NCBI GenBank assembly: GCA_044892525.1
Contig: CM097885.1
Coordinates: 5,272,001-5,336,000 of the forward strand
Source of the DNA: Schmidtea polychroa
Taxonomy: Eukaryota
DNA length: 64,000 nt
Reading direction: 5' to 3'
Shown: one piece after another, positions 5,190 to 35,100 of the stretch
How positions within the stretch are numbered: position 1 is the first letter of the stretch
Layout of the letters: the number at the start of each line of letters is the position of its first letter
Translations under genes and position numbers: made by a program
Notes under the pieces: generated by a model
The model's database searches: none
Told to the model about the DNA's origin: nothing
Seen by the model: only the letters and a program-made list of their open reading frames with translations

Positions 5190-8100
5190 TCATGAATCCT
5201 GATCTGAGCTCGTGCATGAACTCATTTCGTTACCTGAAGTATCAAAGCTATCTTCGATATCGGACTGAGAGTCTTGATAAGAGACAATATTTGAAGCTTG
5301 AATGTTTTTATTAGTTGATATCGGCCGGTTGATTACAGCGGGGCTCTTTTCAGACGTCGACCGCAAATCAGACTCCCAAAATAAACAGACGTTAGCGATA
5401 TGAATAACATGTCTGGGATCCAGCTGAAATCATTGAAAAATTAGAGAAAATAGGAAATGTACCATTTAGTTCATAATTTGCTATACTTACTTTATCAAGA
5501 TGATTTCTAAACCAAAGAATTCGAGGCAAAACTATCTCACGACAAACAGCAAACAACAATAAGAGTGCAGGAATAAGAAAAGAGCACCAAGATATACCAG
5601 TAAATTCTGTAATACAGTTCATACTAAACATTAAAATAATCATTCCAAGTTGAAGGATTTCAAATGCCTTGAGAACAGATGGAGGAATATCTCGTAAATA
5701 TTCATGGTCCTAAAAATATATGTTCTTACTACAACATTCTTTGCCAAAAATTAATATAACAATAATAATAATAATTAAACATACATGGCAATGATTTAAT
5801 TATAAGATAACGCCAATCAAACATTCTTTTCACGATATATTTCGACAGTTTTCCTGTCATCATCAAGTGGGATATAATAACTATGTAAATTAAGGATTTT
5901 AAACAATTTATTAATTACATAAAAACTTTTTTATTTAATAAAAATATTTAATTATTTTTAAAAATTATAATTAAATTAATATATTATTTTTAATAAATTT
6001 TAGTATTGCCGCACTCAGAAGGTTTTAAGGATTATAAAGTGAAGATTAGAACGCTGTTAGGAAAATTTAAACTATAGGATAGTTATTAATAAGTCAATAT
6101 CGTTTATCAGTTTACATGTAATGGATGTAATGCCACATACATTGGAGAGACTTCCCGTCATTATAGACCGAAGGCTTTAACCCATAATAGTGAGCACAAT
6201 AAGGGTTGTAAGATTAAAATAGGAATGTCTGATTTTAAAATTTTATTAAAAAATTTCGATAATTATTGGGAATTATTTAATTAAAAAACAGTAGAGTAGG
6301 GTATTGTGTGGACCCGGGTGAAACCTTTGCATAGATCTCTTCAAGACCTTACGAATGATGTGAATAAAATATAATTAAAATTTTAAAATACCGCAACGTA
6401 ATATATTTAATAATTAAAATTTCAAAATACCGCAACGTAATATATTTTTAAAATACCGCAACGTAATATAAATTTTAAAATACCGCAACGTAATATAAAT
6501 TTTAAAAAACCGCAACGTAATATAAATTTTAAAAAACCGCAACGTAATATAAATTTAAAAAAAAATTTAAAAAAAAAAAAATTTAAAAAAAAAATTAAAA
6601 AAAAAAAAAAATTAAAAAAATACCCCCTCCCCCGGGGGGTATGACGTCATATGTCTTTGTGACGTCATCGATGACGTCATATGTCTTTGTTCCCGGGTCC
6701 ACACAATACCCTACTCTACTGTTTTTTCTCTCTCTTTTTCTCTTTGTTCGATTGGGATTTAAGTGTAACCATGTATAGGCAGAATTTAATTCTCTACAAA
6801 ATGGCTCAAATAAAACTTTAGTTTGTCGCTTTGTGTGTAATACACACATGTTTTTACGATAAATTTGTATTTTTCATACAGTTAACGTAATTTTCTTAGG
6901 ATTTTATTCATATAATATATAGATAAAATTTAATTTTCTATAAAATGGATTGATTAGAAATTATGTATCTTGTTCTGTGTGTAATACACACATGTTTTTA
7001 AGATAAATTTGTATTTTTCATATAGTTAACGTAATTTTCTTAGGATTTTATTCATATAATATATAGATAAAATTTAATTTTCTATAAAATGGATTGATTA
7101 GAAATTATGTATCTTGTTTTTTTTGTGTAATACACACATGTTTTTATGATAAATTTGTATTTATTATACGTTAACGTAATTTCCTTGAATATTTATTCAT
7201 ATATTATATAGATAAAATTTAATTTTCTATAAAATAGCTGGATTAAAAATTATGTCTTGTATGTTGTGTGTAATACACACATGTTTTTTACGATAAATTT
7301 GTATTTTTCATACAGTTAACGTAATTTCCTTGTATATTTATTCATATATTATAGAGATAAAATTTAATTTTCTATAAAATGGATTGATCTAGAGTTTAAA
7401 ATGTTGTATTATTTTATTACTTTGTTGCAATATTTTTATAATCTTATAACATTTTGCTTAAATATTTTACATCTGGTGAAATATTTCCGAAATATGTTAT
7501 TACTTTGTTGTAATTTACTGAAAGACTTCACAATTTATTACAATATTCTTTTTAATTTGTTGTCCGTCTTCGAAATAATGTATTGATTTGTCCCAATTAA
7601 CATCATTATTTTATTACTTTGTTGCAATATTTTTATTATTTTAGTTACAATTTGATAAATATTTTACAACTTTGTTGAAATTTTCTGAAATATGTTACTA
7701 CTTTGTTGTAATATTTTCTAATCTTGTTACAATTTGTTTAAATATTTTACAACTGTTGAAAATTTATCTGAAATATGTTATTATTTTGTTACAATTTTAT
7801 GAAAACGTTATTACTGTTTTGCAATTTGATGAAAAATGATATTACTTTGTGGGTTCATCACATTATTTTTATTAAATTATTATGAAAATGTTAAATAAGT
7901 CAACTTTAGCATCAAAATGTGTTTTAAAATATATTGAACTTTTATAATACTGTAACACATTTATTTTTCCTACCCCTTCCTTGATTTTGATTGGTCAGAA
8001 TATATTTATTTTTCCTACCCCTTCCTTGATTTTGATTGGTCAGAATTTAATCATGTGTAATATATAAGCAGTAACTTTTCAAATGTTTGTCATTTAAACT

Positions 8101-32100: not shown

Positions 32101-35100
32101 TTAAGAAAACTATAATTTAAATAAATTAATAAATCAATTTTTAAAATTGATCATAAGTAGGGTATTGTGTGGACCCGGGAACAAATAACTATTACGTAAC
32201 CGATGACGCCACAAAGTAAATTACGTCACACCCCACCAGGGAGGGATATTTTTATAAATTTTAAAAATTACGTAACAAAGACATATTGCATAACAAAGGA
32301 AAAAATTTGAACAAAGACACATGACTCATCATACTTTTTAAATATATTACGTTGCGGTATTTTAAAATTTAAATTTAAAAACTTATTTTGACGGTTAAGT
32401 TGACAAAATAAAATTATTATTACACAAAATGTATATATAGTCTATCAGACAAGATATTCTGTCCCAGTCACAAAGGTACACAAAATGTATAAAAATATTA
32501 TTAGTGTCCACACATGCAACAAGTTATTATTAAGTTATTATTTTTAAATAAATTTTAATAAATTTTAAAATACCGCAACGTAATATATTTAATAATTAAA
32601 TTTTAAAATACCGCAACGTAATATATTTAAAAAGTATAATGAGTCATGTGTCTTTGTTCAAATTTTTCCCTTTGTTATGCAATATGTCTTTGTTACATAA
32701 TATGTCTTTATTACGTAATTTTTAAAATTAAAAAAATAAAACCCCCACCCGGGGGTATGATGTAATTTCCTTTGGGACGTCATCGATTACGTAATAGTTC
32801 TTTGTTCCCGGGTCCACACAATACCCTACTCCCATATAATCCATAACTCAATCTGATTGAGAATGTCTTTTCTGCAATATTTCTCCTTAAGCTCGTACTA
32901 GTAATAATAATCAAAGAATATATCAACAGAGTTGTGGATAAAATGATTTCTGAAAATGCTATTGTTTTCCAAATTTTTTATAATAATATAAAAAAAATAT
33001 TTTTGCATTTAAAAGGAAATAGTACTTTGAATAATTGAATAAAGTTTAAATTTCTATATAAAATATAATTTCTATATAAAAATTAATAATTTCTTTATAT
33101 TAATTAATAAGCCTGTAAGCATTGTCTAATAATTATAATAAAATAAAATAATTATAATAAAACAAAATAATTATAATAAAATAAAATAATTATAATAAAA
33201 ATAAAATAATTATAATAAAATAAAATTATTATAATAAAATAAAATTATTATAATAAAATAAAATTATTATAATAAAATGAAACAAAAATCTTTATTTACC
33301 CTGATGATTGTCAAAATTGCTTTGAAAATAAAGTAAAGACCAACAAATGCATTGAAACATTCTTCCACAGACCTGCGAACCTTCTGCATAATCCATGTGA
33401 TATTAATAGCCAGAGATATGATTCCTATCAGAGAACAGTACATTGCAACTATAAACCGGTAAAGGAGAATTGGAATAGCAAAATTGCTTGCCATCTGTAA
33501 GTATAATTACATTATCATGTTAGTTTAATTTAACTATGGTAATGTCATTTAATATATCGAAGATTTATATTTTATAAATAACTGACAATACAGACTACGT
33601 TTGTACATTTTTAGGTACTAACTGTATAAAGTTCCTTTGTGACGAATAAAATACCACTCCTGAGGTACACATTATGGTCAAAAGGATTATTAAATTGACC
33701 CAAACATTTTGTACATATGAAAGAATATAAAACAAAAATAAATGCTAGAAAAACTTAAAACTGTATAAGAATGTATATAGCATTTTCATAATCAATTCAA
33801 CTATTTTCATAATCAATTCAACTATTTTCATAATTAATTTAAACTCTTATAATTATAAAATTAAATTTAATCCTTATGAATAATACGACTCAATAATTTC
33901 AAGTACATCTACAAGCCTCGCCCAAGGTTATGGGAAAATCTCTAAAGAAAAAAAAGATAATTTAATTATTTTAGTCATTGAGGACGGATTAACAATTGTG
34001 GCTGCTGCTGCTCAACTACGAATAAAGGAAGGATCGGCTAGATGCATTATCGCAATGCACAAAAAAGCCATAATCGGGCCTTTTACCAATAAAGAGCACA
34101 AGCCTACAAGGAAAAAAGGGCCTGAAAACGAAATCAATTATTAAGTTTGTTGTACATTGAAAATCTGATTTCTCAATGGACAACAATAACACTGGAAGAT
34201 ATTCAAATAAAATTCTGTGAGAAATTTAGAATACGAGTTGATGCAATTTGCCAAATGCAGATTACGTGTAAGTCGCTTTCAAGGATCAACGATCGAGTAA
34301 ACTTTATCGAAAACTTAGAAAAGCGAAGAGTTTATGCCATTAATTATACATTGAATGCACCAACAGAAACATTAAAACAGATATTTATTGACGAATCAGG
34401 CTTTAATCTTCATCTACGAAAATCATTTAGAAGATCAAAAAGGGAACGAGAGCTATCCATATAGTCCCAGTGATAAGGGGAAGAAATATCACTATGATAG
34501 TTGCTTGTAATAGCAGAAGAGTAATCCATTCTAAGATAATTAATGGTTCTACTTGCAATTCCGTAATTTTTGCTGATTTCATCAGAGAATTATTAATTTG
34601 CATTGATAATGACCAACCTTTGCATGGATCTTGGGTTATTTTGGATAACGCCACAATACATAAAACTGTTGATGTGAGGAGCCTGTTTGCGAATTCAGAA
34701 AGATGCTCGTTAAATTTCTTATCACCTTACTAATATATGCTCAATCCATTCTAGCAAGTCTTTTCCAAAATCAAGTTTTTGATTAAAGACAGACTTGGCC
34801 GATATCAGGACATTTTCCCCTCCCAATCAAATAGGACTTCATCCCCATTATCTTTATATTAATTTTATTTATATATAGTATTTATATATCTTTGTACTAA
34901 ATTTATTGATTTTCGAGGTGAAGAGATAGATATCTTGAAATATCTGCTTGGTTGATATTAGTTCACTATTTTGAGTGAGTAAACGAAAATGGAGGGGATT
35001 CCTATTTGATGGGGGAAAAGTCCGGAGTTGGGGAGATGTCCAAGACTCGAATTGCCCATATCAGGTATGACAATACTCAAAGTCTTGTTGGGTTGATGAA

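Follow-up and report, generated by a model that had tools for sequence, protein, structure and literature searches.

We have analysed the AGTAG-ended sequences in a 64,000-nt stretch of the Schmidtea polychroa genome (NCBI GenBank assembly GCA_044892525.1, contig CM097885.1, positions 5,272,001 to 5,336,000 of the forward strand; the whole stretch is hereafter called the window, and its positions are counted from its first letter). These sequences are the termini of Mavericks/Polintons, a class of virus-like elements, and they belong to three families, termed A, B and C. Family C is very probably a palindromic Maverick derivative that has kept the gene for the protein-primed DNA polymerase (pPolB) as its only gene and has been amplified with an integrase supplied in trans; the complete 15.5-kb elements of family A are its relatives. 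The assembly (781 Mb in 1012 contigs) is AT-rich, and the GC content of the window ranges from 7 to 40% per 2-kb bin.

Each family C element is a palindrome of 13.1 kb, in which two arms of ~6.3 kb surround an A-type mini-element of 0.3–0.44 kb; each arm carries a pPolB gene that reads outward to the AGTAGTG... terminus. Searched genome-wide, as the first-pass annotation of the window had suggested, the C terminus gave 252 forward and 268 reverse matches (up to three mismatches), from which we take the family to number ~260 copies, with 6-bp target site duplications (TSDs). The family A terminus gave 606 forward and 604 reverse matches (up to two mismatches), and the family B terminus 4 and 8 (up to three). 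Every search was paired with a reversed-pattern control, which returned 0 matches each time; the first 100 places were listed per search, and all pair counts below refer to those. The listed C places form 43 pairs, 31 of them 12.4–13.9 kb long, and 14 places are unpaired. Eight of the 43 pairs span 6.7–12 kb with the same termini, and in two pairs of 14.8 and 17.4 kb the centre is displaced by insertions. No autonomous-looking element with C termini occurs among the 43 listed pairs.

The full copy L038/L039 illustrates the architecture. Each half has the pPolB gene, on the minus strand to the left of the centre and on the plus strand to the right; when one half is inverted, the two are 99.8% identical over 5294 nt and 97.7% identical over the next 864 nt. 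A 431-bp A-type unit sits between them. One of its sides has just a 29-bp terminus and the other an entire A-type terminal inverted repeat (TIR), the latter sharing 85–86% identity with the terminal 316–326 bp of the long A copies L032/L033. The centre junctions of L038/L039 read ...gagagagaaaaaac|AGTAGAGTAGGG...CCCTACTCTACT|gttttttctctc..., and full C copies have at their centre agagagagaaaaaac|AGTAGAG...CTCTACT|gttttttctctctct; that is, the flanks of the centre are each other's reverse complement, not a direct repeat. Palindromic flanks likewise surround three other short A pairs (L083, L084 and L001/2).

The position of the short A pairs agrees with this. The first 100 A places form 34 pairs of plus/minus neighbours, 12 of them below 1 kb and 22 long. 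Eight of the 12 short pairs are central in a listed C pair, 5.8–6.8 kb from both ends (10.7 kb on one side in a single instance); of the remaining four, two have palindromic flanks, one is the 431-bp copy of the window and one, of 675 bp, is free. The identification of the 431-bp unit as a miniature inverted-repeat transposable element (MITE) was thus rejected: its flanks are inverted, and it sits at palindrome centres. The doubled-unit terminus typical of C centres has 97 + 95 exact matches in the genome, and these 192 are contained in the 1210 matches counted for the A terminus. Terminus counts for family A are thus inflated by palindrome centres, and would be more so if each of the ~260 C copies adds two.

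Apart from pPolB, a C arm matched none of eleven other proteins of the long A elements in a tblastn search. Its short terminal repeat is AGTAGT, while that at the centre is AGTAGAGTAG; ungapped, the C and A termini are identical at 16 of 24 positions, AGTAG included. Arms differ by 0.03–1.7% across C copies, compared with 1–8% amongst long A copies, and family C has therefore expanded more recently than family A.

Mavericks/Polintons are 13–25 kb long, with TIRs of 100–1500 bp and TSDs of 5–8 bp (PMC10748475). Against this description, the ~6.3-kb arms of family C are four times the longest TIR quoted; the element has two polymerase genes and nothing else; and its centre is a mini-element of a foreign family. 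The titles and abstracts returned by our full-text search contain no palindromic polymerase-only Polinton/Maverick derivative; Repbase and Kapitonov and Jurka 2006 lay outside its scope, and a prior description there is possible.

The long A elements, by contrast with C, carry every sequence-level hallmark of Mavericks/Polintons that we tested. Polintons reportedly have 5′-AG ends and 6-bp TSDs (Kapitonov and Jurka, 2006). Eleven of the 22 long A pairs span 15.18–15.92 kb. The complete elements (15.2–15.9 kb) have TIRs of 700–900 bp (three long copies aligned), 6-bp TSDs and 5′-AG ends with a short terminal repeat, and they encode a pPolB, an integrase with rve and chromo domains, an A32-like ATPase, an adenain-like protease and a double jelly-roll capsid protein. 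Gene content was read from three long pairs, which are mutually 92–99% identical. The first-pass annotation had proposed to look for long copies with integrase, ATPase and capsid genes that share the TIRs of the small elements, and such copies exist with the family A terminus.

The domain evidence is as follows. The polymerase open reading frame (ORF) of the long A elements specifies 1226–1399 amino acids and is 56% identical over 847 residues to the pPolB of the window; it is this match on which the assignment of the 1399-residue protein as pPolB is based. The ATPase has a Walker A motif, GPSGSGKT, and a Pox_A32 match of 27.1 bits (cutoff 22.8); the integrase has an rve match of 33.7 bits (cutoff 32.6), followed by a weak Chromo match; and the protease matches Peptidase_C5 with 27.0 bits (cutoff 21.3). 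An rve domain was also found in the element B4, and none in family C, the window copy of family B and the two short A copies; family C and these copies, which lack an integrase, are therefore derivatives, not autonomous members.

A 407-residue protein of the long A elements, with many relatives of about the same length in metagenomes, is identified by its predicted fold as a double jelly-roll major capsid protein. The model, built with 29 sequences, has a predicted local distance difference test score (pLDDT) of 88.4 and a predicted template modelling score (pTM) of 0.87. With Foldseek, it matched capsid proteins of grouper iridovirus (SGIV) and PBCV-1 at E ~1e-16 and those of the virophages Sputnik and mavirus at E values between 1e-14 and 1e-13; the query TM-scores were 0.5–0.65. 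The best hit in a viral library was to a protein carried by a bracovirus (24% identity), followed by capsid proteins of virophages, adomaviruses and giant viruses. Between the integrase and capsid genes lies an ORF of 360 residues, whose nearest Atlas clusters are hypothetical proteins of Preplasmiviricota, with recognition below threshold; as a candidate minor capsid (penton) protein, it is only a lead.

The long A elements have two further ORFs that may be cargo taken up from a host: one with a TATA-binding-protein domain (L036:3321-3809, minus strand; PF00352, E 9.1e-15, 54.7 bits, cutoff 22.9) and one of 110 residues with a weak match, below cutoff, to the Bcl-2 family (L036:1025-1354, plus strand; E 8.7e-4). 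Microsatellites of the (AAT)n type are expanded in frame in Maverick genes (L036:5225-5875; L037:2583-6779): the integrase ORF of one copy has a poly-Ile run, and the N-terminal part of the A polymerase has long poly-Asn runs.

Of 30 complete elements examined, 29 have a perfect 6-bp TSD and the remaining one matches at five of six positions: the long A pairs, including those of 12.0, 28.8 and 30.5 kb, are perfect in 14 of 14 cases, a 3.2-kb A element has CTGGCA, 10 of 11 readable C pairs are perfect at 6 bp (the other at 5/6), and so are four of four B elements, with the unambiguous TGCGAC, AAAGTA and TACATG outside the window. The 6-bp length that the first-pass annotation expected of Maverick derivatives is therefore borne out. 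It had also named autonomous partners with a cut-and-paste transposase as the finding that would speak against them, and no such partner came to light. Cut-and-paste transposons with an integrase-like transposase (Ginger2/Tdd-like, such as dictyostelid Tdd-4), or MITEs derived from them, would share the TIRs, a size such as the 3.8 kb of B and the rve-type enzyme that the long partners encode, but those partners are 15–16 kb long and encode, besides the rve integrase, pPolB, the ATPase, the protease and the double jelly-roll capsid protein. This identity is refuted by gene content, with the TSDs of 6 bp and the genome size of 781 Mb as further arguments against it, and keeps next to no probability.

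In the window, family C is represented by a one-armed remnant. The first-pass annotation had taken its parts for separate things: a free miniature element at 6290–6720, an orphan pPolB and a distinct end at 12874. All three belong to one C element. The stretch 6771–12875 is 97.7–98.5% identical to both arms of L038/L039, and 6283–6720 matches its centre; the 431-bp copy is thus a palindrome centre, which leaves the 675-bp copy as the one free unit of the 12 listed short pairs. A solo pPolB gene beside an apparent MITE can therefore be one arm of a palindrome, which is a warning for annotators. No match to the C arms was found in positions 1–6282 of the window. A search for another C terminus, across the window and 6 kb upstream of it and with up to six substitutions allowed, gave none. 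The features of this region are:

5780–6282, plus strand: host flank, repeat X (terminal arms of ~223 bp plus inner part); in a genome search, both flanks of the remnant match X arms
6283–6289: AAAAAAC, 7 bp apparently left over from the missing left arm; reverse complement of GTTTTTT at 6721–6727
6290–6720: C palindrome centre, an A-type mini-element with perfect 29-bp TIRs and a doubled AGTAG unit (sequence reading, alignment)
6721–12874, plus strand: right C arm with tandem repeats, pPolB, AT-rich tail and C terminus (match to L038/L039)
6830–7393: tandem repeats in the right C arm, 144 bp × 3.9
8624–12094, plus strand: pPolB coding region (PF03175, tblastn, ORFs)
9192–9232, plus strand: candidate intron 1, 41 nt, GT..AG, phase one; removal restores the frame at residues 435/436 of the intronless A protein
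9446–9488, plus strand: candidate intron 2, 43 nt, GT..AG, phase one; removal restores the frame at residues 511/512
12846–12874, minus strand: C terminus AGTAGTGAATAGTAAGGACTCCAGGACAC (terminus search)
12883–13051, minus strand: inverted arm of repeat X beyond the remnant (inverted-repeat detection, X search)

Within the centre, tandem repeats (27 bp × 5.4), an A-run, a C/G box and three copies of TGACGTCA are found, and the right ~330 bp correspond to one TIR of a long A element.

Repeat X, which is very abundant and unrelated to the C element (2833 first-look candidates; 40 scored places with 92–97% identity over query positions 1–223), defines the insertion site. The inverted X arm at 12883–13051 matches X on the left flank; with X arms on both sides, the C copy is therefore nested in a copy of X. 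Four further copies of X have 187–189 bp between their inner part and the inverted arm, and these are absent here together with ~36 bp of the arm, so that ~224 bp of X are missing at the C site. At neither candidate boundary is the remnant surrounded by a 6-bp repeat. Judging from these junctions, the window copy probably began as a complete insertion, from which a single later deletion removed the left arm together with the left TSD and ~224 bp of flank. Instead, it could have integrated as a half-element (a “monomer”) with an A-type left and a C-type right terminus, in which case it would be the replicating unit from which palindromes are regenerated. The chief point for this is that the copy stops 7 bp beyond the A-type terminus of the centre; moreover, both its ends start with AGTAG in inverted orientation, with termini that agree at the 16 of 24 positions mentioned. 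A half-element is nonetheless unlikely: the candidate boundaries (AAAAAC or TTAATT against AATGTT) form no TSD, the 7 bp mirror the right flank as they would in a palindrome instead of repeating it directly, and the loss of ~224 bp of the host repeat differs from the clean junctions of 29 of the 30 insertions examined.

The pPolB gene of the window is recognised by PF03175 in the ORF 9482–12094 (E 4.1e-31, 108.8 bits) and is colinear with residues 263–1356 of the intronless 1399-residue A protein. The tblastn match comes in three pieces (residues 263–435 at 8624–9190, 436–511 at 9232–9450 and 502–1356 at 9449–12028), which correspond to one exon ending at 9191 and two more at 9233–9445 and 9489–12094; a further weak match at 8175–8387 may be an upstream exon. 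The C gene thus differs from the uninterrupted A gene by two short candidate introns. Their effect on the reading frame was worked out by arithmetic on the ORF coordinates, and candidate intron 1 is identical letter for letter in six of nine arms checked. Of the spliced pPolB described in the first-pass annotation, the two GT–AG, frame-restoring candidate introns are present in the sequence, and splicing itself is plausible. A genome search with the last exon gave 52 scored matches (of 18,414 candidates), all at ~100% identity and with an open frame of 870 residues without a stop. The ORF pattern 101/249/83/870 occurs in five of nine arms inspected, i.e., both arms of two copies and the window arm. 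The C polymerase is probably active.

The two arms of a C element evolve together. We aligned the 12 arms of six full copies with the window arm. Within a copy, arms differ by 2/5282, 8/6199, 1/6357, 43/6226, 1/6358 and 15/6277 substitutions. Between copies, 1–58 differences per pair are identical in both arms; for example, one pair of copies has 55 symmetric differences, as against 1 and 14 asymmetric ones. Only 2 of 68 asymmetric columns are common to two copies, and the two shared asymmetric columns of an earlier four-copy alignment are located in an AT run. By these counts, the mutations that distinguish lineages are in both arms, and those specific to one arm are private. Either the arms are made symmetric again in each round of copying or chromosomal gene conversion acts between the inverted arms, and the six copies are compatible with both. 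In a protein-primed replicon that copies by strand displacement, the strand displaced from a palindrome would snap back as a hairpin, for which the adenovirus panhandle and its end repair offer a precedent. In the copy c143 (L093/L094), all 43 arm differences fall within ~1.07 kb around exon 2 (alignment columns 2752–3823); to judge by the sequence, the cluster points to a stretch acquired from a diverged copy or to decay confined to this region, not to uniform ageing.

As to its origin, we propose that the palindrome arose by fold-back. It would have arisen once, at a break beside a nested A-type mini-element, whose 29-bp inverted ends would pair in single-stranded DNA, such that the folded 3′ end could be copied along the remaining arm. 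An ordinary insertion of a mini-element would leave a direct 6-bp repeat; here, the mirror runs on for 6.3 kb, as expected of a fold-back product, and the proposed origin would account for centre flanks that are inverted rather than direct. Hairpin-mediated fold-back inversions have been reported in yeast (PMC7467729). Fold-back palindromes of this type and family C share the order of arm, short inverted repeat, asymmetric loop, short inverted repeat and mirrored arm, as well as the recurrence of the original flank as a reverse complement instead of a direct repeat. What differs is the outcome: in family C, a mobile element was then copied ~260 times with TSDs, rather than a chromosome being rearranged. 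The ribosomal DNA of Tetrahymena also becomes a palindrome by fold-back at short inverted repeats. The product would have had two identical ends and its own polymerase, with every other gene lost, and would have spread to ~260 copies.

Such an element would retain the cis-acting requirements of a protein-primed replicon, which are met by a pair of identical AGTAGT ends (a 3-nt direct repeat), together with a polymerase. A 3-nt terminal direct repeat is of the type that serves jump-back initiation in adenovirus. Family C lacks integrase and capsid genes and yet has clean 6-bp TSDs at dispersed sites, in ~260 copies; integration must therefore be supplied in trans, and complete relatives that could act as helpers are present. 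The donor of the integrase would most simply be family A, which is complete, present in comparable numbers and identical at 16 of 24 terminal positions.

The first-pass annotation had rightly seen that the elements of the window lack an integrase or transposase and must have been integrated in trans, and a capsid gene is likewise absent from the window: in tblastn with the eleven long-A proteins against the 64 kb, the sole match was a 21–25-residue ATPase remnant at 27215–27324, and Pfam found nothing above noise in seven ORFs of A1 and B1 and in one 401-residue ORF of B2. It cast the neighbouring orphan, spliced pPolB as a candidate helper, by which the small AGTAG elements would be replicated and integrated as satellites. 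For this, one can cite the missing integrase, the AGTAG ends and subterminal motifs in common and the open pPolB exon. But pPolB, the 431-bp copy and the end at 12874 are one element; a polymerase could not provide for integration; none of the 12 listed short pairs is a free 431-bp unit, and there is just one 675-bp copy; and with hundreds of copies in the genome, proximity within the window is irrelevant to action in trans. That the pPolB of the window served as helper is accordingly very improbable. The helper–satellite idea survives in inverted form: the polymerase-bearing element is itself the dependent party, non-autonomous and amplified, and the candidate helpers are the complete 15.5-kb elements outside the window.

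Several points weigh against a fold-back palindrome mobilised by family A. The junction that would have preceded the palindrome (direct GTTTTT on both sides of the centre, up to two mismatches) has 0 matches genome-wide, though this is no evidence either way. The dependence on the A integrase is argued from the missing integrase of family C, the 6-bp TSDs and the 16/24 identity, and another Maverick family could be the helper. The number of C copies derives from terminus counts, and the arm comparison covers six copies of near-standard length out of ~260. Both arms of the copy c193 share one frameshift, and in c143, exon 2 is broken in both arms, in different ways. In the window copy, a random deletion would be unlikely to have its breakpoint as near to the centre as the 7 bp observed. 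Finally, Pfam did not call PF03175 in the 1399-residue A polymerase (L037:2583-6779), giving only a weak Endonuclease_7 match; its low-complexity N-terminus may be behind the missing call via the filters.

Somewhat doubtful, though worth weighing, is a reading in which family C is the natural defective, helper-dependent genome of a Maverick, an inverted dimer shaped by the size limit of a capsid and made symmetric again in every replication round by snap-back or panhandle formation. A half of 6.6 kb (arm plus centre) would be too small for the capsid of a 15.6-kb helper, and only the 13.1-kb dimer would be packaged and transmitted. The tight lengths agree with this (31 of the 43 listed pairs at 12.4–13.9 kb, against 15.2–15.9 kb for complete A elements), as do the symmetric variants between copies with private asymmetric ones, the capsid, ATPase and protease genes of the helper family, and the proportions, with C at 84% and its half at 42% of the length of a complete A element. 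Adenovirus provides the precedent (PMC4189039): rearrangement occurs in helper-dependent genomes shorter than ~27 kb, and a vector of 15 kb was packaged as direct and inverted dimers. That vector, a defective, protein-primed linear genome of about half unit length, came back in dimeric form, direct or inverted, with a size near the full unit, and family C resembles it as an inverted dimer at 84% of the length of the complete family; unlike it, a laboratory construct without viral genes, family C is natural, integrated and amplified, keeps its polymerase and is known from sequence only. On the other side, the packaging argument is read from integrated copies, the likeness of the arms could equally be maintained in the chromosome by conversion between inverted repeats, faithful copying from one founding palindrome would explain the narrow sizes without a packaging limit, and the eight pairs of 6.7–12 kb with the same termini fall below the range.

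Beside the palindrome, the window contains two further AGTAG-ended elements, which are ordinary deletion derivatives:

25413–25418 and 29206–29211: TSD of the window B element, ATAATA, within an (AAT)n run, where its length alone does not discriminate
25419–29205: family B element, 3787 bp, an internally deleted Maverick; 79–93% identity to the ends of L040-L042
27215–27324, minus strand: remnant of a packaging ATPase gene in the unique B centre; tblastn, 68–81% identity over 21–25 residues
32156–32830: free-standing A-type remnant, 675 bp, with two terminal repeats (1–391 and 386–675; sequence reading)

The TIRs of the B element are ~1 kb long (25419–26409 and 28154–29205), contain 24 copies of TCAAGGTCA and enclose a 1.7-kb centre, in which a 147-nt piece is 82% identical to the ATPase gene of L036 (3851–3996). 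Three B relatives measure 6.4, 8.3 and 9.2 kb. The longest (L042) has B termini, while its interior (1273–8252) is 96% identical to the long A elements L036/L037 and runs from the small ORFs to the protease, without a polymerase; therefore, ends and interiors have been exchanged between Maverick families. None of the 12 genome matches of the B terminus belongs to an element with a polymerase. The polymerase-less L042 is, in its gene content, the complement of the polymerase-only family C.

The 675-bp A copy occurs only once in the genome as a whole; its halves match the ~400-bp ends of other copies at 76–91%, and its flanks (ATCATA and CCCATA) agree at four of six positions. We rejected an amplified MITE family in this case, since only the halves recur, as ends of other copies. 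The first-pass annotation's view of the small elements as miniature Polinton derivatives thus holds for their Maverick origin, given the TSDs and the long partners, and fails for their supposed status as free miniature elements: the 431-bp copy is not free and the 675-bp copy is unique. As in other deletion derivatives and MITEs, B (3.8 kb), the 3.2-kb A element and the 675-bp copy are internally deleted and keep their TIRs, and B and the 3.2-kb element have 6-bp TSDs. In contrast to MITEs, none of them is amplified here (12 matches for the B termini, a single 675-bp copy), and the sole amplified non-autonomous form is the gene-bearing palindrome.

All coordinates claimed for the three AGTAG-type termini proved exact on direct reading of the sequence. 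The unit 6290–6720 ends in AGTAGAGTAGGGTATTGTGTGGACCCGGG and its exact reverse complement, 32156–32830 in AGTAGGGTATTGTGTGGACCCGGG and its reverse complement, and both show AGTAG(AGTAG)GGTATTGTGTGGACCCGGG at either end in inverted orientation; 25419–29205 has AGTAGGTGGAAGGGAGCCCGCCAGATCAC at one end and the reverse complement at the other, and the plus strand of 12846–12874 is the reverse complement of AGTAGTGAATAGTAAGGACTCCAGGACAC. The motifs that the first-pass annotation had listed as shared are equally real. A C-run/G-run box lies 30–100 nt inward of the A and B ends. The motif common to A and B, AACAAAGACAYATGACTCA, has 4 copies in the 64 kb (0.00 expected), one in each TIR of B and of the 675-bp copy; that common to B and the 12874 end, TCAAGGTCA, has 26 in the window (0.40 expected), namely the 24 within B, one in the 12874 end and one at 25082. 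The motif AACAAAGACATATGAC occurs 8 times with up to two mismatches (0.09 expected), the 431-bp copy included.

The subterminal repeats are arrays of short motifs (6640–6680 in the palindrome centre; 25490–26250 and 28318–29135 in B; 32230–32330 and 32640–32760 in the 675-bp copy). All three copies of TGACGTCA in the window sit in the 431-bp centre, and of TGACTCA/TGAGTCA there are 8 copies in B and two in the 675-bp copy, many of them beside AACAAAG. From their letters, these are candidate transcription-factor sites: TGACGTCA is like a cAMP response element (CRE), TCAAGGTCA corresponds to the extended half-site of nuclear receptors, and TGACTCA/TGAGTCA is AP-1-like. Elsewhere in the window, a 1.7-kb tract of (AAT)n type extends over 16300–18000, and two 285-nt inverted repeats (20828–21112 and 21780–22064; 91% complementary, 667 nt apart) are probably the ends of another small TIR element.

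The model in which Mavericks/Polintons replicate in the manner of adenoviruses and build virions is based, in animals, almost wholly on gene content. Family C, very young and of high copy number, with a polymerase and ends only, an architecture that a snap-back or inverted-dimer defective genome would be expected to have, the 6-bp signature and co-varying arms, makes this replication model testable, as it predicts trans-complementation between elements, a constraint on length and end repair of the panhandle type. Should the packaging reading be true, the structure of family C and its ~260 near-identical copies would be the genomic footprints of Maverick encapsidation and strand-displacement replication in an animal, and the two Maverick families would stand to each other as a parasite of a parasite.

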